Both the position numbers and the translations under genes were made by a program. Positions 1 through 34,645 of a DNA stretch of 38,377 nt are shown here, piece after piece. The notes under the pieces are model-generated. The model searched no databases, was not told where the DNA came from, and saw only the letters and a program-made list of their open reading frames with translations. Source of the DNA: a virus (Duplodnaviria > Heunggongvirae > Uroviricota > Caudoviricetes); the IMG/VR virus record IMGVR_UViG_2531839475_000013. The stretch is one strand, 5' to 3'. The number at the start of each line of letters is the position of its first letter. Position 1 is the stretch's first letter.

Positions 1-483
1 CTATCTGGTCAGGGTGTCGTACTGTTTTTCACAGACTCTTCCGGCTTCGGCTGCCCGGTCAGCATACTCTGCCAGTTGTCTGTTTCTCTCGAGAGATTTA
101 CTGAGCACGTCGGCAAGCAAAACTCCGGTGTCTGCGGCTGACGTCCCAGCGCCGACAATGGCGTTATACTGCCTGAGCTGCTCACGGATGGCAACGAGCT
201 GTTGCTGCAACCGGCCAGCGCGAGCGGCAGCATCAAGAGCATCATTGCGCGCCTGGTCGATCCTCTGCTGCGCTTCACGTTCATTGATCGCTTTCTCCTG
301 TTCGTAGTGCTGACGAATTCTCTCATCTTCGGTTTTGCGGTCTTCTTTCGCCTGCGCATACCCGGCGTCGTACTGACGACTGCCGTGTACACTCCAGGCA
401 ACAACTCCTGATATGACCAGAACAGCAAGCACCGCCATGATAATCAACTGTTTCCGGTATGCTTTTACGAATGCCAAGATCAT
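1..483 (-). CDS. Rz-like i-spanin (lysis)
   Basis: 160-aa ORF immediately after the endolysin with a 4-nt overlap; N-terminal TM helix ([14 protein letters not shown]) then a charged, Gln/Arg/Ala-rich helical domain; a lipoprotein ORF is embedded in another frame (Rz1 arrangement). Stop codon at 1..3. Confidence 0.6.
9..284 (-). CDS. Rz1-like o-spanin lipoprotein embedded in the Rz frame
   Basis: Out-of-frame ORF wholly inside the Rz-like gene; signal peptide with lipobox ([23 protein letters not shown]), then a Ser/Pro-rich mature peptide. Start could instead be the MM doublet at 245. Confidence 0.5.
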   Translation of the reverse strand: MNVKRSRGSTRRAMMLLMLPLALAGCSNSSLPSVSSSGSITPLSALGRQPQTPEFCLPTCSVNLSRETDNWQSMLTGQPKPEESVKNSTTP

Positions 484-4587: not shown

Positions 4588-4602
4588 TTACCTTTCAGGT
4601 GA
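4588..4602. promoter_or_regulatory. operator-like palindrome TTACCTTTCAGGTGA
   Basis: Member of the repeated TTACC-N5-GGTAA family; upstream of the LexA-box promoter of the small antirepressor-like gene. Confidence 0.55.
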
Positions 4603-4641: not shown

Positions 4642-4657
4642 CTGTATAAATATACAG
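4642..4657. promoter_or_regulatory. LexA (SOS) box CTGTATAAATATACAG
   Basis: Perfect CTGT-N8-ACAG with AT-rich spacer inside a sigma70-like promoter (TTGCTA 4636..4641; TATTGC 4659..4664), about 20 bp upstream of the ATG at 4679. Confidence 0.75.
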
Positions 4658-4678: not shown

Positions 4679-4936
4679 ATGCAGCAGTATCACTATCCAC
4701 TGGAAGACGGATTTACCGAAAGGATTCACACGCCGGGAGGCGTCAGGTCACTGGTGGAGGGATCGCATTTGATGAAATTACTCCGGGATCTCGATAAGGA
4801 TGGATTTAATGTCGATGGCCCACTTGCCGAACTGACTGCACTGATTAACTACGTCACCAGCTCACAGATGTCTATGCGGGATCTGCAAACACATCTCGAC
4901 TATTGTGCCGAACAATTACGAAAACAAACCAGATAA
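4679..4936 (+). CDS. small antirepressor-like protein (standalone copy of the Bro-N antirepressor C-terminal module), LexA-controlled
   Basis: 85 aa from the ATG at 4679 (RBS GGAGAAG); sequence IHTPGGVRSLVEGSHLMKLLRDLDKDGFNVDGPLAELT...RDLQTHLDY aligns with the C-terminus of the downstream Bro-N protein (IHSPSGVLGLTENSLLMNLLNQLQEDGHDVSGAAAELT...RDIQTHAEY). Confidence 0.6.
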   Translation: MQQYHYPLEDGFTERIHTPGGVRSLVEGSHLMKLLRDLDKDGFNVDGPLAELTALINYVTSSQMSMRDLQTHLDYCAEQLRKQTR

Positions 4937-4967
4937 GGTTTGCAATTGCCAAGTGGAGTGCTTATAT

Positions 4968-4982
4968 TTACCTTTGCGGTAA
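4968..4982. promoter_or_regulatory. operator-like palindrome TTACCTTTGCGGTAA inside a larger inverted repeat
   Basis: Perfect TTACC-N5-GGTAA, flanked by GGAGTGC (4955..4961) and GCACTCC (4992..4998). Confidence 0.5.
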
Positions 4983-5076
4983 ATTTACATCGCACTCCTC
5001 TTGTGCCATAGTAATCGGGCACTGGCAAAATCCAGTGCCGGGATTGGCGTCCCGAGTTACTACAGAGGCACATATG

Positions 5077-5096
5077 CCGCATAAGCGGTTTTTTTT
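5077..5096 (+). terminator. weak intrinsic terminator (CCGC-ATAA-GCGG then T8)
   Basis: Short GC stem followed by eight T; lies between the small antirepressor-like gene and the Bro-N gene. Confidence 0.35.
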
Positions 5097-5249
5097 ATGT
5101 GTAAAGCGCACCTATTCTATGGTGGGCTGTGTGGGGGCACCGAAAGGTGCGCCGGGTCCTTTGTAGCCGGTTACGCCAACCCTGCACAGTTCACCACCAA
5201 CCGATTGGCGTCGGTAGTGGTGATTAACCTAACTACAAAGGTGATCACT

Positions 5250-5936
5250 ATGACTGCTAACGTAACCCCATCTGTTTTTCATTTTGAATCAGAAGCAACC
5301 ATTCGAGCCATTGTTATTGATGGAAATCCTTGGTTTGTTGCCAAAGACGTTATTAAAGCTCTTCAACTGACAAACCCCACTATGTCAATAAAATCTCTTG
5401 ATGATGATGAAAGGGCTAAATTTAACTTAGGCCGTCAAGGCGAAACCAATATTATCAACGAGTCAGGCCTCTACACACTGATCCTCCGCTGCCGCGATGC
5501 AGTAACACCAGGCACTATCCCCTACCGCTTTCGCAAATGGGTTACAGGTGAGGTACTTCCTCAGATCCGCCGCACCGGAAGTTACATTAAAAACTCGCTC
5601 CCGCAAGAAGAACGCATAAAGATGGTTGCCGACCAGGTAGCCAACGCCACGGCGTCAGCAGTGATGCAGGCAATGAAGATAGAGAACAAAACCTACAGCG
5701 CCCCACTGAAGCCCGGCTACCGCAGCCTGATTCACTCGCCGTCTGGTGTTCTCGGCCTGACGGAGAACTCACTGCTGATGAATCTGCTGAACCAGTTACA
5801 GGAAGACGGGCACGACGTATCGGGCGCGGCGGCGGAGCTGACCACCATGTTCTGCTACATCGTCGGTGTGAGTAAATGCCTGCGTGATATCCAGACCCAC
5901 GCGGAATACATCAACGACAAAGCAGGGTTCTTCTGA
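5250..5936 (+). CDS. Bro-N domain antirepressor
   Basis: N-terminal region (VIDGNPWFVAKDVIKALQL...) matches the Bro-N/antirepressor DNA-binding domain; RBS AAAGGTGA; start chosen at the ATG at 5250 rather than the ORF-track start at 5097. Confidence 0.7.
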   Translation: MTANVTPSVFHFESEATIRAIVIDGNPWFVAKDVIKALQLTNPTMSIKSLDDDERAKFNLGRQGETNIINESGLYTLILRCRDAVTPGTIPYRFRKWVTGEVLPQIRRTGSYIKNSLPQEERIKMVADQVANATASAVMQAMKIENKTYSAPLKPGYRSLIHSPSGVLGLTENSLLMNLLNQLQEDGHDVSGAAAELTTMFCYIVGVSKCLRDIQTHAEYINDKAGFF

Positions 5937-5978: not shown

Positions 5979-6021
5979 TTGCAGACTGGGGGTGAATAGC
6001 GTACTATTACCTTAAAGGTAA
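5979..6021 (+). promoter_or_regulatory. sigma70-like promoter (TTGCAG-17-TACTAT) overlapped by operator TTACCTTAAAGGTAA (6007..6021)
   Basis: Hexamers with 17-bp spacing; perfect TTACC-N5-GGTAA palindrome over the -10/+1 region, immediately upstream of the accessory cassette. Confidence 0.5.
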
Positions 6022-6047: not shown

Positions 6048-6257
6048 ATGGGATTTTGGTTCGCTCGTACAAAAACGAGGGATAATGCACCCAGCCCTCA
6101 GGCAAAAAATGCAGAAGTTCCGGCGTCAGCGCAGGTTAACAAGCGTGGTGGTGTGTATATCTCATCACAGCAAATTTCTGAGCTTCCTGAGGTTAAGGAG
6201 ATGCGTCGTCTCGCTGCTGCAATCGTTAAACAGGATCTTGCCACTGTAAGGAAATAG
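6048..6257 (+). CDS. small hypothetical protein, first gene of the accessory cassette
   Basis: 69 aa; strong RBS GAGGAGGAG; stop overlaps the GTG start of the next gene (TAGTG). Confidence 0.5.
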   Translation: MGFWFARTKTRDNAPSPQAKNAEVPASAQVNKRGGVYISSQQISELPEVKEMRRLAAAIVKQDLATVRK

Positions 6258-7120
6258 TGTTGTTAGCTCTTCTAATTATCCCCATTCTGGTTAGTGGTTA
6301 TATTATGATAACCGCTAACCAGTATCATTATTTCCGTTTATACCGACATGAAGGCCAGCTTCTTTATATGAAAGTTGCTGCATTAGGTACATATTGCCTT
6401 GTTGCTTCGGTAATAATTGCCGCATTTATAAAATATAAATATCCTGATTTTCACCTAGTTCACGATATGGTGGAAACTTTTAATGTAACGTCAAAACCAG
6501 AAACAGATAGAATTTACATGTGGCTACTTCTTCTGTCAGTCACATCAATTTGCTTCTCTTTGTGTTATGTATCTTTTGTTTGGCTAAAAGATCTTCTTTT
6601 AGGTTGTTTTTATAAACGTGATATTTATGACAAAATATCAGAGGCAATGAAAGCTAGGGTATTGCGAAAAACGTACTCCCAGGGTTCTTTAGATTTGCTA
6701 TTGCTTGATGCAATCGAATCAGATCCTAAGAAACCAATGTTAATTACTTTATCATCAAATAAAGTATACGTTGGAATAATAAATGGTTCTGGTGAGCCAA
6801 CGGAAAATCAAGGGCCACACCAACACATATCTTTTGTTCCTTTAATGTCAGGGTACAGAAACAAAGAAAATTTATCTGTTACATTTACAAACGCTTACCC
6901 AGGTGAAATCCAAATTAAGCGCAGTGCTGCGATAAAAGGGATAAGCAAAAAGAAAGTTCAAGGTCTAGAAATTATGGTATCTATAGACGAAATAAGTCAT
7001 ATATCATGGTTTGACTTTGAAGTATATAAGGCAACAAATAACAAAGTAGAAACAAAGGGTCATGTTGTTAATGTGACCAAAAATGGTCGCAACATATACT
7101 ACAGAAGTGGCAGAAAATAA
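6257..7120 (+). CDS. membrane protein, 3 N-terminal TM helices plus ~170-aa soluble domain, no recognised family
   Basis: 287 aa from a GTG start coupled to the upstream stop (alternative ATG at 6305); TM helices LLALLIIPILVSGYIMI, AALGTYCLVASVIIAAFI, IYMWLLLLSVTSICFSLCYVSFVWL; strongly AT-rich. Confidence 0.6.
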   Translation: MLLALLIIPILVSGYIMITANQYHYFRLYRHEGQLLYMKVAALGTYCLVASVIIAAFIKYKYPDFHLVHDMVETFNVTSKPETDRIYMWLLLLSVTSICFSLCYVSFVWLKDLLLGCFYKRDIYDKISEAMKARVLRKTYSQGSLDLLLLDAIESDPKKPMLITLSSNKVYVGIINGSGEPTENQGPHQHISFVPLMSGYRNKENLSVTFTNAYPGEIQIKRSAAIKGISKKKVQGLEIMVSIDEISHISWFDFEVYKATNNKVETKGHVVNVTKNGRNIYYRSGRK

Positions 7121-7145
7121 ATTTTACGCAGTTTAGGTGGCTTAT

Positions 7146-7649
7146 ATGGATAATACTATCTTAGGCGCATTGATAGGTGCAGTTATTGCTATAGTTTCCA
7201 CTTATATAAATGCAGGACAAGGATACAAAAACAGCATAAGATTAGAGCGACAAAAAATATTAAGGGATAAACGCGAGCAATTATTTATAAATTGTATACT
7301 TACTAAAAAAGTCATAGATTCAAGCACAATTACCATTCTCAATTTCGTAAAAAATGCCAGATACCACTCTGATAGTAAATTTGACGTATCAAGAGCGAAT
7401 CCGTTGCAAACGATGGAAATGCTAATAAACATATACCTTCCTGAGTATAAAAAAGACTTACAAGAACTCAATAATGCGTATCAAGAATTTCACAAATACT
7501 ACTCTCAATATACATGTGCACATACCTTCAAAAATATGCCTGATAATGAGAAGTCGAGGTTTATTGAGGAGGCTGATTTTTATGCAAAAAAGATATATGG
7601 CAAACTTAATGATATTAAGGACAAGATATCATTAAACTCAATAGTATAA
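7146..7649 (+). CDS. membrane-anchored protein, 1 N-terminal TM helix plus helical domain, no recognised family
   Basis: 167 aa from the ATG at 7146 (RBS AGGTGG); TM helix ILGALIGAVIAIVSTYI; AT-rich like its neighbour. Confidence 0.55.
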   Translation: MDNTILGALIGAVIAIVSTYINAGQGYKNSIRLERQKILRDKREQLFINCILTKKVIDSSTITILNFVKNARYHSDSKFDVSRANPLQTMEMLINIYLPEYKKDLQELNNAYQEFHKYYSQYTCAHTFKNMPDNEKSRFIEEADFYAKKIYGKLNDIKDKISLNSIV

Positions 7650-24168: not shown

Positions 24169-24236
24169 ATCAATGACTCCGTACGCAATTAAATTATTAC
24201 CAATTTAACCACATATGATTTATTTATCGTAGATAG

Positions 24237-24273
24237 TTGACATTTAACGCACAAATTATTACCTTTCAGGTAA
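24237..24273 (+). promoter_or_regulatory. promoter (-35 TTGACA at 24237..24242) with operator TTACCTTTCAGGTAA (24259..24273)
   Basis: Consensus -35 hexamer; perfect TTACC-N5-GGTAA over the -10/+1 region; module resembles 4530..4605 and 30185..30275. Confidence 0.5.
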
Positions 24274-24594
24274 CCAAAGAGTTCATTCCGGTTACTAACC
24301 TGACTGGCTTGTCGTTAAATTGAACAGGTGGAGTGAGCTTTTATTTTGAGCAGTACGGCGTATGGCACATGCGCCGATAGCGGTCTGGATACGTTTAAGG
24401 GGCACCCTCCCTTGCTCGGGCAAACGAACCAGGTAGCCGGAATGTGCAAGTCGAGCGGTTTTATTCCGCGCACGGGGATTCACCATCCCGGCGATTCGGG
24501 TGACGCCTCGGAAGAGACGAGGGTACAACGATGAGAGCATTTATGGAGCCGCGACAAAGTGTGGCGCCTTAACAGGCTAAGTGCTCTCAGCGTT

Positions 24595-24671
24595 GTGGCA
24601 TTAGCTCAGCTGGACAGAGCAACCGCCTTCTAAGCGGTTGGTCGCAGGTTCGAATCCTGCATGCCACGCCA
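24595..24671 (+). tRNA. tRNA-Arg (anticodon UCU)
   Basis: Hand-folded cloverleaf: acceptor GTGGCAT/ATGCCAC, D-arm GCTC-AGCTGGACA-GAGC, anticodon stem ACCGC/GCGGT with loop CTTCTAA (anticodon TCT), T-arm GCAGG-TTCGAAT-CCTGC, discriminator G, encoded CCA. Confidence 0.9.
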
Positions 24672-24757: not shown

Positions 24758-24835
24758 CAGCAGGACGCCATTGCGATGACTTCATGCTGTAAACCCGTAC
24801 AGCAACGGAAGGCATAACTCATTGCTTCCAGTTCG

Positions 24836-24869: not shown

Positions 24870-25166
24870 ATGAGCGAAACATCAACAGTATCTTTCTCCA
24901 CTGCTTTGTCATCACTCAAAGATGGTAAGCGCATTGCACGTGCCGGATGGAATGGCAAAGGCATGTATCTGCAACTGGTTAAGCCACCGCAATCGGCCAC
25001 TCCGAACGATTGGCGATTTGACGTTACATGCGGTGACGAGTATACATTTGTACCTGGCGTTAAACTTCTACCGTGGATTGGGATGAAAACTGCTGACGGT
25101 TGCTTTGTACCGTGGCTGGCATCTCAAACCGATCTGCTATCTGATGATTGGATTGTAATTCAATAA
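24870..25166 (+). CDS. DUF2829-like small protein (Tad2-like candidate anti-defence sponge)
   Basis: 98 aa; N-terminal ALSSLKDGKRIARAGWNGKGMYLQLV and C-terminal ASQTDLLSDDWIVIQ match my recollection of the DUF2829 signature; RBS AAGGTGA. Not verified by HMM. Confidence 0.5.
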   Translation: MSETSTVSFSTALSSLKDGKRIARAGWNGKGMYLQLVKPPQSATPNDWRFDVTCGDEYTFVPGVKLLPWIGMKTADGCFVPWLASQTDLLSDDWIVIQ

Positions 25167-26732: not shown

Positions 26733-27325
26733 TGATTACCATCCTGACGTTCTTTGAGTCGCTTCCTGGCTGCTGCTATGCGATCAGCAATTGTCACATT
26801 CACATTAACATCCAGACGTTCTTTGAACGCGTTGACATCAACATGCTTACCAATCAGCTCAAGGTTCTTCACCTTGTCAGGCCATTTAATTTTTTTGAGG
26901 ATTGTCTCTATCGAATCCTCATTCATGTTCATGATGGTCGATGACAGATCAAAGCCGCTAAGCGTAGTGCGCCAGATTTTCGGCCACTCGCGAATTGGCT
27001 TAAGGCTTCCATCGTCGTTGAGGATATCAATCACGTCCATCTGGTCGATCTCCACCAGGCGCATGAGAACGTAATCAGCACTGACGCGCATTCGTTTGTT
27101 GCGCTCCTCCATCAACTCGGCAATCCGTTTTTGAATGCGTTCATCGCGCATCATTACACTGGCTTTAACTGCCGCTGTATTTGGGGAGAATCCTGCGTTA
27201 ATCGCTGCCTGAGTCTGGTTTTCAGGCGTTTTGATGTATGACTGGCAATAAGCCTCCTGCATTGCTGTGAGCGGCTTAAATTGCGTTGATTTGCGTTTAT
27301 AGGTTTTAGGTTCAGCAGGCATCAT
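26729..27325 (-). CDS. terminase small subunit
   Basis: Start placed at the ATG doublet at 27325 (MMPAEPK...); region LTAMQEAYCQSYIKTPENQTQAAINAGFSPNTA matches the small-terminase HTH motif. The ORF-track start at 27403 is a TTG giving an implausible TITTTVTITT leader. Confidence 0.7.
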   Translation of the reverse strand: MMPAEPKTYKRKSTQFKPLTAMQEAYCQSYIKTPENQTQAAINAGFSPNTAAVKASVMMRDERIQKRIAELMEERNKRMRVSADYVLMRLVEIDQMDVIDILNDDGSLKPIREWPKIWRTTLSGFDLSSTIMNMNEDSIETILKKIKWPDKVKNLELIGKHVDVNAFKERLDVNVNVTIADRIAAARKRLKERQDGNQ

Positions 27326-27368
27326 AACCACCGTGGTAATAGTTACCGTTGTGGTAATAGTACCATGC

Positions 27369-30195: not shown

Positions 30196-30271
30196 TTACC
30201 CCTTAGGTAATTAAAAACCACATAAGACATAAAATCAATAGAGATTAGAACATTTTATTACCCTGCAGGTA
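30196..30271. promoter_or_regulatory. pair of perfect operator palindromes (TTACCCCTTAGGTAA 30196..30210; TTACCCTGCAGGTAA 30257..30271)
   Basis: Two perfect TTACC-N5-GGTAA sites 61 bp apart between the P-like gene stop and the next early gene start; intervening AACCACATA motif also seen in the other modules. Confidence 0.55.
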
Positions 30272-30309
30272 ATCATGTAGGCGTAAAAAAATGCGCTATC
30301 GCGCTGGTA

Positions 30310-32099: not shown

Positions 32100-32179
32100 G
32101 GTAAGCCCTGTTATTAGTATTGGGATTACGGTTATTTTGTGCTGACACAAAAAAAAGATCAACCATATTTGGTTTTTTA

Positions 32180-32194
32180 TTACCTTTGAGGTAC
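32180..32194. promoter_or_regulatory. operator-like palindrome TTACCTTTGAGGTAC
   Basis: One mismatch to TTACC-N5-GGTAA; preceded by ATTATT and an AACCATAT motif as at the other modules; upstream of the replication genes. Confidence 0.45.
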
Positions 32195-32200
32195 GAATAG

Positions 32201-32228
32201 ATATGAAAAGACCGCCGGATGGCGGTCT
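32201..32228 (-). terminator. intrinsic terminator downstream of the cro-like gene (AGACCGCC-GGAT-GGCGGTCT, then TTTTCATAT on minus strand)
   Basis: Perfect 8-bp stem with 4-nt loop, followed on the minus strand by a U-rich tract; tR1-like position. Confidence 0.6.
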
Positions 32229-32249
32229 ACAGAGGGTTGTGGCTGGATA

Positions 32250-32480
32250 TCATGAGTAGAAGAAGTATGCCAGTTCTGCTTTTGAGCGCAGCCATTGTCT
32301 TGATTTACAGGCTTTAAAAAGCCCATCCATCAATACCTTACCTGGCATTTTGCGCTTACCTGTTAAGTGAGTCTGGATATAGTGACTCGTCGTTCCGGCT
32401 TCCTGTGCGAAGGCTTCACGCTCATCCGGAGTAAGTGCAAGCCAGTGCTTTTTGAAATCGAAATGTCCGTTATTGCTCAT
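32250..32480 (-). CDS. Cro-like HTH regulator
   Basis: 76 aa, divergent from the repressor gene across an operator-rich 154-bp spacer; HTH-like segment FAQEAGTTSHYIQTHLTGKR. Confidence 0.55.
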   Translation of the reverse strand: MSNNGHFDFKKHWLALTPDEREAFAQEAGTTSHYIQTHLTGKRKMPGKVLMDGLFKACKSRQWLRSKAELAYFFYS

Positions 32481-32516
32481 AGCTATTGCCTGATATTTAT
32501 TTCAGATAATAAATAT

Positions 32517-32579
32517 TCACCTATAAGGTAACAAAAATCAAGGATAGTTACCCATGAGGTGCATTTACCTGTTGGGTAA
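32517..32579. promoter_or_regulatory. immunity-region operators: three TTACC-N5-GGTAA-type sites (32517..32531, 32548..32562, 32565..32579)
   Basis: TCACCTATAAGGTAA, TTACCCATGAGGTGC, TTACCTGTTGGGTAA in the spacer between the divergent cro-like and repressor genes. Confidence 0.6.
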
Positions 32580-32634
32580 TATTGCTTTAAATTGAATCAT
32601 CTTCTGATTCAGATATGAGGCGATTTTCCAGAAA

Positions 32635-33219
32635 ATGAAAAGTATCCAGGACGTCCGCAGGCAAAATCTCAACGACTTGATCGACCGTGAATTCAATGGT
32701 GTTCAGACGCGGATGGCTGAAAAACTTGGAACTCAGGCAAATCTGGTAAACCGCTGGGCTCTTGGCAAGAAGGTTATCGGCGACCAGGTTGCGCGAAAAA
32801 TTGAAGCTGCCGCCAATAAACCCCGTAACTGGCTTGATATCGATCGCTCGCTTTCTCAGGAAGGTTTTCAGCCTGTCGGACCAAGCGACATTGGTCAACT
32901 GGCGGCTCACAACCTGGAACGCTGGATGAGCGAAAGCCGCGACCTTTCAACGCAGGGAAAACTTCACCGCGCATCCGGCGTCGCCCAGGTGACAATCAGC
33001 CGCCTGTTAAACAATGAGGTCAGCGTTTCCATTTCCACCCTGGAGAATGTTGCATCCGCATTCGGGCGTCACGGCTATGAATTACTGATTCACCCGCACG
33101 ACCCTGCGACTATCAACTATGACCGCTCGCGCTACGCTTTGTTACCCGAAACCGAGAAAGCAAAGATCGAAAGTTACATTGAATTTGTCATCAACCAGAA
33201 CGAAAAAAACAAACAATAA
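32635..33219 (+). CDS. prophage repressor, two HTH domains, no S24 peptidase domain
   Basis: 194 aa; two HTH-like segments (TRMAEKLGTQANLVNRWALGKK and ASGVAQVTISRLLNNEVSVS); no Ala-Gly/Ser-Lys autocleavage module visible; little or no RBS, so possibly leaderless. Confidence 0.6.
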   Translation: MKSIQDVRRQNLNDLIDREFNGVQTRMAEKLGTQANLVNRWALGKKVIGDQVARKIEAAANKPRNWLDIDRSLSQEGFQPVGPSDIGQLAAHNLERWMSESRDLSTQGKLHRASGVAQVTISRLLNNEVSVSISTLENVASAFGRHGYELLIHPHDPATINYDRSRYALLPETEKAKIESYIEFVINQNEKNKQ

Positions 33220-33239
33220 AATCATATTTTTCAGTAAGT

Positions 33240-33265
33240 AAGCCGCCTTCTGGCGGCTTTTTTAT
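33240..33265 (+). terminator. intrinsic terminator after the repressor gene (AAGCCGCC-TTCT-GGCGGCTT then T-run)
   Basis: 8-bp stem, 4-nt loop, six T; 20 nt after the repressor stop. Confidence 0.7.
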
Positions 33266-33276
33266 TGCCTGTTCGA

Positions 33277-33353
33277 TTACCTAACGGGTAATTTTTTTAA
33301 CTCATATCTATTGACATCAAACCATATACGCATAATTATTACCTCAACGGTAA
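33277..33353 (+). promoter_or_regulatory. early promoter (-35 TTGACA 33311..33316) bracketed by two perfect operators (33277..33291 and 33339..33353)
   Basis: TTACCTAACGGGTAA and TTACCTCAACGGTAA; the proximal one overlaps the -10/+1 of a promoter driving the recombination operon. Confidence 0.55.
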
Positions 33354-33372
33354 CAGACCGAGGTAACAAGTT

Positions 33373-33525
33373 ATGCAGTGGAAAATCATCAACGGTTGGT
33401 ACTGCGTTACTGCATGCGGATTCATGAGCTGGAAGTTCCGCACCTTACAGGAAGGCATTAAATGGGCTTTCGTCAGCAAAGAAGCTCGCGATGTGGCCAA
33501 CGATAACGAGATATGGGAGGGCTGA
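33373..33525 (+). CDS. small ORF (50 aa), first in the recombination operon (hypothetical)
   Basis: Not in the ORF track (<60 aa); GAGGTAA RBS 6 nt upstream; Trp/Cys-containing peptide; stop 2 nt before the next start. Confidence 0.3.
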   Translation: MQWKIINGWYCVTACGFMSWKFRTLQEGIKWAFVSKEARDVANDNEIWEG

Positions 33526-33527
33526 TA

Positions 33528-33827
33528 ATGAACGTTAATCAGCAGAAAAATCTTCAAAAAATCATGCTGGCATTCGACAAGGACTACCGTCTGTCAGAAC
33601 AGCTATATGACCGACAAGTTGAACTGATTGAGAGTATCCGGCTTCATCAACTGGCATCAACTTTCGACGTTGTAACAGTTAAAGGCGTTCGCCAGGAAGT
33701 ACTGGAGGCCGCTAAAGACAGCCCTGAGTTCGAAGAACTAATGGATGCCTACCGGCGCGAGGCAATGGCAATTATCGCCCGCTGGGATCTGGCTGATCAG
33801 CTTGATGGGCAGAGGGACGCGGCATGA
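33528..33827 (+). CDS. hypothetical early protein
   Basis: 99 aa from the ATG at 33528 (RBS GGGAGGG); 4-nt overlap with the exonuclease gene. Confidence 0.4.
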   Translation: MNVNQQKNLQKIMLAFDKDYRLSEQLYDRQVELIESIRLHQLASTFDVVTVKGVRQEVLEAAKDSPEFEELMDAYRREAMAIIARWDLADQLDGQRDAA

Positions 33828-34645
33828 AACCGGGAATTTATTTCGACATCAGCAACGAAGACTACCACGCCGGTGACGGCGTGAGTAAGTCGCAACTGGA
33901 CATGGTTGCCAAGAATCCGGCGCTTCTTAAATGGGTTCAGGCAGCACCAGAAGACGAAGAGAAAAAGTCTGCACTGGATATGGGAACCGCATTGCACTGT
34001 CTGCTTCTGGAGCCTGGAGAGTTCGACAAACGCTTCATTGTTTCACCGAAATTCGATCGTCGGACGAAACAAGGTAAAGCTGACGAAGAGGAATTTCTTC
34101 GTGATGTGGCGGATATGGGGATTACGGTACTTGATGCCGAGCAGTGGCGGAAACTGGAGCTGATGCGTGATAGCGCAATGGCTCACCCGGCGGCACGCTG
34201 GATGCTGGAAGCACCTGGTTACTGCGAAGCATCAATGTACTGGAACGATGAAGAGACGGGGGAGTTGTGCCGAATTCGTCCAGACAAATGGCTGAACGAG
34301 CACAACGTGATCGTCGACGTGAAAAAGGTTGCAGATATGGACCGTTTTGCACGCCACATCGAGGAATTCCGCTACCACGTGCAGGACGCAATGTACCGCG
34401 AAGGCGCAATGAGGGTTACTGGTCAGCCGCATGGTTTTTTCTTTCTTGCCGTGAGCGAAAGCATTGATTGTGGTCGGTATCCGGTACGCGTGTTCGAGCT
34501 GGATGCGCAGGATGTCGATGCCGGGCACGCTCTGTTCCGCCGGGATCTGAATACCTATCACGAATGCCGCATCAATGATGAATGGGGCGGTGTGGAAATC
34601 ATTAAACGCCCTGAGTGGGCACGCAAACAGGATATGTACATATGA
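33824..34645 (+). CDS. RecE-like PD-(D/E)XK exonuclease
   Basis: 273 aa; resembles RecE C-terminal-type phage exonucleases; translationally coupled (ATGA) to the RecT gene. Confidence 0.6.
   Translation: MKPGIYFDISNEDYHAGDGVSKSQLDMVAKNPALLKWVQAAPEDEEKKSALDMGTALHCLLLEPGEFDKRFIVSPKFDRRTKQGKADEEEFLRDVADMGITVLDAEQWRKLELMRDSAMAHPAARWMLEAPGYCEASMYWNDEETGELCRIRPDKWLNEHNVIVDVKKVADMDRFARHIEEFRYHVQDAMYREGAMRVTGQPHGFFFLAVSESIDCGRYPVRVFELDAQDVDAGHALFRRDLNTYHECRINDEWGGVEIIKRPEWARKQDMYI

Follow-up and report, generated by a model that had tools for sequence, protein, structure and literature searches.

The stretch IMGVR_UViG_2531839475_000013 (38,377 nucleotides, called the window below, and to which all coordinates refer) contains the lysis-lysogeny control, or immunity, region of an Escherichia coli prophage that is phiV10-like and falls within the genus Uetakevirus, the epsilon15 family of podoviruses. 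We propose that this region very probably works as an antirepression switch of the kind described for phage SPC32H, in which a repressor, Rep, is taken off its operators by a small antirepressor, Ant. Since Rep carries no autocleavage domain, induction would run through a LexA-controlled Ant, and such a protein is encoded in the window. The window has every mark of an SPC32H-type switch that can be read from sequence, namely a full-length Rep homologue with no cleavage domain, a small Ant and a predicted LexA box at the ant promoter.

Over positions 32100..33400 the window is 98.7% identical in DNA sequence to phage phiv142-3, 98.5% to phiV10 and about 77% to Enterobacter phage Tyrion, all of which, like the region itself, fall in the genus Uetakevirus, that is, among the epsilon15-like podoviruses. 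The gene order is that of a prophage, with the lysis genes first and the integrase last. The immunity module (32250..33372) is at least 95% identical in 540 of 5426 complete E. coli genomes (about 10%), and is almost always present there as a single chromosomal copy. A scan of IMG/VR with a Rep alignment found identical Rep encoded on at least 80 contigs; the best 80 loci all encode this same protein, which made them of no use for diversity, and they served for a polymorphism test. Nine Rep clades, with 42-100% Rep identity to the window, were compared: the window, Tyrion, epsilon15, the Klebsiella phage BUCT711, a Serratia relative (L087) and four further loci (L005, L006, L088 and L089).

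A repressor with no cleavage domain

A preliminary description of the region, made from the sequence alone, had claimed a repressor lacking a RecA-dependent cleavage domain, and the domain searches bear this out. No S24 peptidase domain was matched in Rep in Pfam, NCBIfam or PHROGs, and precomputed Pfam annotation has none in any of the 86 clusters of homologues, which are about 190-200 residues long and all from Enterobacterales. Rep aligns over its full length with SPC32H Rep (PDB 5D50_A; phmmer E-value 4e-42, residues 1-190 on 2-197), and its residues 89-190 align with the structure of the SPC32H C-terminal fragment (5D4Z; phmmer E-value 4e-20).

The same description had noted two segments resembling a helix-turn-helix (HTH), and Pfam finds both, an HTH_3 domain at residues 106-147 (E-value 1.2e-9) and a weak YdaS-type HTH at residues 21-61 (E-value 3e-4). 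The second segment (106-147), however, lies in the C-terminal oligomerisation and Ant-binding fragment that was crystallised as 5D4Z. Because of this location, and because four aligned clades (43-78% identity) show no change in the N-terminal helix N36-L-V-N-R-W41 and only partial conservation of the second HTH, the N-terminal HTH is likely to be the operator reader, which fits an operator that itself does not vary within the genus. Ten C-terminal residues (I160, Y162, D163, Y167, L170, P171, E174, K175, K177 and I178) are also invariant in the four clades, which by analogy is consistent with tetramer binding and dissociation by Ant as in SPC32H. There, according to papers that cite the original work, Rep sits as a tetramer on palindromic sites, its DNA-binding pairs being formed by N-terminal domains from different dimers, and tetrameric Ant binds two Rep dimers and breaks the Rep tetramer, so that the repressor is removed by an antirepressor and not by cleavage. 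Such papers also assign both tetramerisation and Ant binding to the C-terminal domain of Rep.

Experiments bearing on this very protein exist, as the Rep of phage vB_EcoP_ZX5 (ZX5) is 100% identical to that of the window. In the ZX5 study, overexpression of Rep abolished free phage and blocked the lytic cycle, with endolysin and holin transcripts down by more than 99.9%, and ZX5 lysogens were inducible with mitomycin C, reaching about 10^9 plaque-forming units.

A candidate LexA-controlled antirepressor

Some 28 kb from the immunity spacer, the window encodes a small Ant that matches SPC32H Ant (5D50 chain E) with an E-value of 1.4e-46 and is 86.7% identical to the annotated SPC32H ant product. 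This gene, and with it the means of flipping the switch, formed no part of the preliminary description. Of its 16 positions, the predicted LexA (SOS) box before ant shares 15 with the consensus for E. coli LexA, CTGTATATATATACAG. The interval between the tail-fibre gene and ant is collinear with the SPC32H tailspike-ant region, each having a Rep operator, then, 54 bp further on (start to start), a LexA box, and then ant. LexA boxes also adjoin the ant homologues of epsilon15, phiV10 and Tyrion, and the roughly 35 phage records that have a Rep homologue are also those with an Ant homologue.

In this intergenic region, phages SPC32N and SPC32H differ by a single C-to-A change, which lies in the ACAG arm of the LexA box. 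Mutation of the LexA box reportedly makes Ant constitutive, and the SPC32H/SPC32N difference agrees with that report. The small Ant is labelled 'hypothetical protein' in the GenBank records of phiV10, phiv142-3 and ZX5. Antirepression was credited in the ZX5 study to the Bro-N protein ORF4 alone, with no mention of a LexA-controlled Ant.

Operators in the spacer and across the genome

The 154-bp spacer 32481..32634 separates a minus-strand open reading frame (ORF) of 76 codons, cro-like, from the plus-strand ORF of 194 codons that encodes Rep. Reading the sequence directly recovers the three 15-bp sites that had been proposed here (OR1, OR2 and OR3; Table 1), with start-to-start spacings of 31 and 17 bp, and the arrangement of divergent repressor and cro-like genes around a tripartite operator, also proposed before, is both present and conserved. 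OR3 is the only perfect palindrome of the three. Taken alone, OR2, with its two mismatches, is not significant, the window holding 40 sites at two mismatches or fewer against 11.1 expected; we accept it as an operator because its position is conserved, a site lying 17 bp from a perfect OR3 in 9 of 9 Rep clades. Indeed the whole layout is kept in all nine, namely an imperfect cro-proximal site, 30-31 bp, a middle site, 17 bp, and a perfect rep-proximal site. The middle site is itself perfect in epsilon15 and BUCT711 (2 of 9 clades), and in the remaining seven (the phiV10 type represented by the window, Tyrion, L005, L006, L087, L088 and L089) its right half is degenerate (GGTGC or GGTTC). The half-sites of OR2 show no variation among the 80 IMG/VR copies.

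Beyond the immunity region, which was all that the preliminary description covered in this respect, operators appear to be spread genome-wide at about nine promoter regions, the terminase promoter included. Perfect TTACC-N5-GGTAA occurs nine times in the window against 0.01 expected, and none of 100 shuffled sequences reached nine. The epsilon15 GenBank record (AY150271.2) carries seven 'protein_bind: repressor' features, each of the form ATTACC-N5-GGTAAT, and half-sites stand at syntenic positions in phiV10, epsilon15, Tyrion, BUCT711 and the window; the epsilon15 site at 12..27, which is syntenic to the tandem operators before the terminase, is among those annotated as repressor sites. In a count matrix built from 38 perfect sites, the flanking A and T reappear, as does an A/T-rich N5. 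The window sites have the form of epsilon15-family operators, being palindromes of 15-17 bp with TTACC and GGTAA half-sites that are enriched and located at promoters. In several cases the last T of a promoter's -10-like hexamer is also the first base of the operator, which puts the operator's centre at the predicted start site.

The 80 natural copies with identical Rep speak for constraint on the half-sites, where 4 of 60 positions are polymorphic; for the N5 spacers the figure is 13 of 30 (P 7e-5), and for the rest of the intergenic sequence it is 69 of 367 (P 0.025). The N5 centres are in turn more polymorphic than the other intergenic positions (13/30 against 69/367, P 0.004; loci L007-L086, over 32481..32634 and 33220..33372).

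Table 1. Genes, RNAs, operators, terminators and candidate promoters of the switch, in order of position in the window.
Feature	Position	Strand	Description
Operator, tail-fibre/ant intergenic region	4588..4602		1 mismatch; 54 bp before the LexA box; same spacing in SPC32H, where the site is perfect
Predicted LexA (SOS) box	4642..4657	+	CTGTATAAATATACAG; 21 bp before ant ATG
Small antirepressor Ant	4679..4936	+	85 residues
Candidate promoter	4940..4982	+	TTGCAA-17-TATATT; perfect operator 4968..4982 at start site; reads into isrK, C4 and the Bro-N::Ant gene
isrK	5019..5095		Rfam, 74 bits
C4 antisense RNA	5115..5201		Rfam, 79.5 bits
Bro-N::Ant antirepressor candidate	5250..5936	+	Bro-N domain and C-terminal Ant-like domain
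Perfect operator	6007..6021	+	At start site of candidate promoter TTGCAG-17-TACTAT
Perfect operator	24259..24273		Between head genes and plus-strand tRNA-Arg/gp03-like unit; syntenic epsilon15 site annotated as repressor site
Tandem operators	27343..27357; 27325..27339	-	First perfect, second 1 mismatch; immediately upstream of small-terminase start
Two perfect operators	30258..30272; 30196..30210	-	62 bp apart; bracket candidate DUF1064 operon promoter
Candidate replication-operon promoter	32134..32162	-	-35 TTGATC (32162..32157), 17 bp, -10 CAAAAT (32139..32134)
Operator before replication genes	32180..32194		TTACCTTTGAGGTAC; 1 mismatch, GGTAC half; conserved in relatives
Intrinsic terminator after cro-like gene	32201..32228	-	Stem 32228..32209; -15 kcal/mol, z -5.1
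cro-like gene (phiV10 gp41, epsilon15 gp39)	32250..32480	-	76 residues
Candidate PR of cro-like gene	32513..32541	-	-35 TTGATT (32541..32536), 17-bp spacer, -10 GAATAT (32518..32513)
OR1, cro-proximal	32517..32531		TCACCTATAAGGTAA; 1 mismatch to TTACC-N5-GGTAA
OR2, middle	32548..32562		TTACCCATGAGGTGC; 2 mismatches, right half degenerate
OR3, rep-proximal	32565..32579		TTACCTGTTGGGTAA; perfect; centre 63 bp from rep ATG
Repressor Rep (phiV10 gp40)	32635..33219	+	194 residues; not cleavable by domain content
Intrinsic terminator after rep	33240..33267 (33240..33259)	+	-17.5 kcal/mol
Candidate PL-like early promoter	33277..33353	+	TTGACA (33311..33316), 17 bp, AATTAT (33334..33339); two perfect operators

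The candidate PL-like promoter, which reads into an ORF of 50 codons and then the exonuclease, RecT and AlpA-like genes, has its operators at 33277..33291 (centred at about -62) and 33339..33353 (centred at about +1). Of 15 such promoter-bracketing pairs, from Rep clades down to 42% identity, 13 have a start-to-start distance of exactly 62 bp, and the spacing is kept despite diverged intervening sequence (the window, phiV10, epsilon15, Tyrion, BUCT711, L005, L006, L088 and L089). The exceptions are BUCT711, with 63 bp, and the Serratia relative L087, with 75 bp and a relic half-site at the 62-bp position. In these pairs the upstream operator is followed by a T-tract. The single-operator promoters at 4968 and 6007 have no partner operator 62 bp upstream.

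The candidate terminase (late) promoter has an extended -10 (TGgTACTAT) with no -35 and stands directly after the terminator of the preceding operon; its tandem operators are 18 bp apart, at about +1 and +19, and a single base separates the end of the second from the small terminase's ATG region. The operator at 30196..30210, TTACCTAAGGGGTAA, lies 3 nt before the DUF1064 ATG, and its central AAGGGG doubles as the Shine-Dalgarno sequence of that gene.

The cro-like gene and the identity of the operator-binding protein

The product of the cro-like gene matches PHROG 35, 'transcriptional repressor' (E-value 3e-12); it has no match in Pfam or NCBIfam, and the best hit of a PDB profile search, an immunity repressor, has an E-value of 0.26. 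Its family is narrow and enterobacterial; it has 51 clusters, and identity in the aligned region is 64% or more for each. An AlphaFold (AF2) model with a predicted local distance difference test score (pLDDT) of 88 has five helices, and its best fold matches are the DNA-binding domains of 434 repressor, YdaS and P22 c2, at template-modelling (TM) scores of 0.45-0.63 and E-values of about 1, which are not significant. Going by this model, 'Cro-like' seems a reasonable label for the 76-residue protein: the protein is predicted to be small, all-helical and of HTH type, with weak fold E-values, and its gene comes first on the transcript that runs away from rep.

The putative recognition helix of the cro-like protein, AGTTSHYIQ.HLT, is invariant across the four clades, and the protein is more conserved than Rep (58-84% against 43-78%). 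Such invariance would fit an invariant operator, and it is conceivable that the palindromes mainly serve the cro-like protein or some other regulator of the phage, Rep having a different target. We think this very unlikely, since every lytic unit, the late operon among them, has such sites on the core of its promoter, as is expected of prophage-repressor targets, and the epsilon15 record labels them as repressor sites; SPC32H Rep is described, in papers citing that work, as binding palindromic sites, an identical Rep silences the lysis genes when overexpressed, and the Rep helix NLVNRW is invariant as well.

Promoters and terminators around the spacer

For the cro-like gene, TTGATT/GAATAT is, on sequence grounds, the best candidate for PR. 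OR1 lies inside its spacer, centred at about -18, and a TTG hexamer (TTGATT, TTGCAA or TTGCCT) occupies the -35 position in all clades. A promoter scan offered TTGTTA-17-TATTAT (32534..32506) as an alternative, which overlaps OR1 too. The strong minus-strand terminator that had been noted after the cro-like gene was recovered in the folding calculation (Table 1), and both this terminator and the one after rep are annotated in the phiV10 record.

Further along the minus strand, the preliminary description had placed another operator-bearing promoter before the replication genes. There is support for it, with the operator at 32180 lying upstream of the candidate promoter (centred at about -61) and not on it; at the predicted start there is only a half-site, TAACC. 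The pattern TTGATC-N17-(C)AAAAT(T) is conserved in the window, phiV10, Tyrion, epsilon15, BUCT711 and L005, and L006 keeps TTGATC and the 17-bp spacing with GAAAAT as its -10. A promoter scan also proposed a lambda-PRE-like plus-strand promoter in the same block (CTGACA-16-CATATT, 32142..32169), which would read antisense through cro into rep. Neither Tyrion nor the other clades keep its hexamers, and we rejected it because the conserved block is better explained by the minus-strand TTGATC-17-CAAAAT.

How rep itself is transcribed is less straightforward. As had been observed, there is essentially no Shine-Dalgarno (SD) sequence before the gene, the sole purine block, GAGG (32617..32620), ending 14 nt before the ATG. 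No canonical SD was found 5-10 nt upstream of the rep start in any of the nine clades examined; short GA-rich runs occur 1-4 nt from the ATG in three of them (AGAG in Tyrion, AGAA in BUCT711 and GGA in L087), too close to act as an SD. The lack of an SD is thus conserved, and the rep mRNA may be leaderless. When a -10 is placed 7 nt before the rep ATG, the nine clades offer only A/T-rich, poorly matching hexamers with no -35 (GATTTT in the window). The distance from the OR3 centre to the ATG is 61-64 bp in eight clades, the same as that from upstream operator to start site in the PL-type promoters, and 55 bp in the Serratia relative L087.

The opposite view is that rep mRNA has a leader. Transcription would then start near 32600 from TTACCT (32565..32570)-17-TAAATT (32588..32593), OR3 would overlap the -35 so that Rep represses its own gene, and translation would begin, with no SD, on an A/U-rich leader of 35 nt. 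The -10-like TAAATT, 42 bp upstream of the rep ATG, is better conserved than the hexamers next to the ATG: TAAATT, TTAATT or TAAATA lies exactly 17 bp after the TTACCN of OR3 in 8 of 9 clades (L006 has TAATGA), and promoter scoring ranks TTTACC-18-TAAATT among the best for the OR3 site. On the other hand the -35 is weak, agreeing at 3 of 6 positions, and the conserved A/T block may instead be a site for integration host factor (IHF), which is annotated at the same place in epsilon15. We regard a leadered rep mRNA as quite plausible, with the chances a little short of even.

The features around rep also bear on whether the region might be a strict lambda-type CI/Cro switch, with RecA-stimulated self-cleavage of the repressor, sites acting like OR1-OR3 and a CI-activated leaderless PRM. 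Such a switch would suit the collinear order of cro, OR, rep, terminator, PL-like promoter, recombination genes and AlpA-like gene, with the integrase at the end of the window, and equally the tripartite operator, the lack of an SD before rep and the PL-type spacing between OR3 and the ATG. However, its cleavage component is already refuted by the domain content of Rep and of the 86 homologue clusters, Rep is homologous to an antirepressor-controlled repressor with both Ant and a LexA box at hand, and the hexamers near the ATG are poor, at a distance that falls to 55 bp in the Serratia relative. We therefore consider a strict lambda-type switch barely tenable.

The proposed switch and points that weigh against it

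In the antirepression switch that we favour, Rep, composed of an N-terminal HTH, a second HTH_3-like domain and a C-terminal oligomerisation tail, would bind the 15-bp aTTACC-N5-GGTAAt palindromes. On OR1, within the spacer of the cro-like promoter, it would block that promoter, OR2 and OR3 forming a tandem pair 17 bp apart beside the rep start. Rep would also directly shut every lytic unit, including the PL-like recombination, replication, DUF1064, terminase/late and second antirepressor operons, among others. DNA damage would lead to LexA cleavage and hence to Ant synthesis; Ant would bind the C-terminal region of Rep, Rep would leave its operators, and all of them would be derepressed. The cro-like HTH protein, from a monocistronic unit with its own terminator, most likely binds the same spacer and turns rep down.

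Several points weigh against this account. What the analysis shows directly are the sequence features, the homologies and their conservation; which protein sits on which site, where transcription begins and what the cro-like protein does are deduced from them. Rep is only about 42% identical to SPC32H Rep, and the tetramer geometry and the contacts with Ant are transferred by homology. The epsilon15 record leaves the three sites of its rep-gp39 spacer unannotated, though its sequence has them. The fold matches of the cro-like protein carry little statistical weight (best Foldseek E-value about 0.9). Finally, if the left half of OR3 is the -35 of rep, then the strongest site would repress rep, an autoregulatory logic unlike that of lambda.

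We also put forward four extensions of the model. Rep tetramers may use fixed geometries, with the 62-bp pairs (at about -62 and +1) closing a micro-loop of about six turns and with pairs 17-18 bp apart at the late promoter and at OR2/OR3. OR3, at roughly -62 from the rep start codon, may both close the switch and position a leaderless rep promoter, or activate it in a class-I-like manner. A second antirepressor, Bro-N::Ant, under the control of Rep and of the RNAs IsrK and C4, may provide an induction route that is LexA-independent or feed-forward. Lastly, although Rep diverges to 42% identity, the genus as a whole keeps one operator specificity and a highly conserved Ant, which would make prophages of different hosts cross-immune and cross-inducible. 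That all four hold together seems to us unlikely.

A second antirepressor candidate and neighbouring features

The C-terminal 80 residues of the Bro-N protein are 41% identical to the Ant of the window (E-value 2e-16) and match 5D50_E with an E-value of 1e-13. Between 4940 and 5936 the order is a promoter with the perfect operator 4968..4982, isrK, C4 and then Bro-N::Ant, and the module looks like an RNA gate of the P1 immI or Gifsy-1 IsrK type placed ahead of an Ant-domain fusion.

Downstream of the promoter at 6007, the interval 6048..7649 holds ORFs of 69, 287 and 170 codons with no informative Pfam match; the sole match reported there, for the 170-codon ORF, is below Pfam's cutoff, and the product of the 287-codon ORF looks membrane-associated from its sequence. 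This interval may be a variable accessory cassette under Rep control.

A tRNA-Arg(UCU) gene (24595..24671, plus strand) is oriented against the head genes on either side and lies upstream of a gp03-like ORF (24870..25166). About 320 nt separate it from an upstream promoter-like sequence that contains TTGACA and has the perfect operator at 24259 (region 24234..24671), and a perfect CTGT-N8-ACAG is found at 24787..24802, between the tRNA gene and the gp03-like ORF. In the recombination operon, the exonuclease (33824..34645) and RecT (34615..35583, with a GTG start as listed) are separate overlapping ORFs, and the phiV10 record has a single fused 'recET' coding sequence.

Comparison with known systems

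The switch as such is already known, being covered by the records of phiV10 and epsilon15, by the structures from SPC32H and by the experiments on ZX5. It carries little weight as a discovery, as the phage type has been sequenced and partly characterised and the switch has been solved structurally in a relative; the 62-bp operator pairs, the homology of Bro-N::Ant to Ant and the genus-wide operator specificity may be new. The practical value is that about 10% of the complete E. coli genomes carry this very module. With the SPC32H model transferred to it, there is a full operator map, the SOS response is predicted to induce these common prophages via LexA and Ant, and related prophages may, as a prediction, cross-induce and cross-repress one another.

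The phages phiV10, phiv142-3 and ZX5 are essentially the same element, at 98-99% DNA identity and with Rep 100% identical. The phiV10 record describes gp40 as 'putative transcriptional repressor; two helix-turn-helix motifs', and in the records of all three the operators and the small Ant are unannotated. The SPC32H Rep-Ant system is alike in the domain order and length of Rep, in its small Ant, in the LexA-box distances, in its genus, Uetakevirus, and in gene order. It differs in the sequence of Rep, the two proteins being only about 42% identical, and in OR2, which is degenerate in the window and perfect in the epsilon15/SPC32H group.

The sites of the epsilon15 repressor, gp38, have the identical half-site motif, and syntenic sites precede both the terminase and the early-left operon, lie in the ant/tailspike region and follow the replication genes. 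In the epsilon15 rep-cro spacer there are three sites at spacings of 17 and 30 bp. Unlike the window, epsilon15 has no full site between the cro-like gene and the next gene, and it is without the module that the phage of the window adds, a Bro-N-fused Ant domain behind the IsrK and C4 RNAs.

As in lambda, the repressor and cro genes diverge, the operator is tripartite, and an early-left promoter under operator control stands downstream of the terminator that follows the repressor gene. Unlike lambda, the system in the window has no S24 autocleavage domain and would be induced by an antirepressor; its operators stand at every operon, the late genes included, with no N/Q antitermination cascade, and its cro has its own terminator. 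The repressor would also, by analogy with SPC32H Rep, be tetrameric with its N-terminal domains paired in trans. The antirepressors of Gifsy and Fels-2 and Tum from coliphage 186 are likewise LexA-repressed small proteins that inactivate a non-cleavable repressor. Their Ant and Rep families are unrelated to those of the window, whose Ant, by analogy with SPC32H, would target the C-terminal oligomerisation region of Rep.

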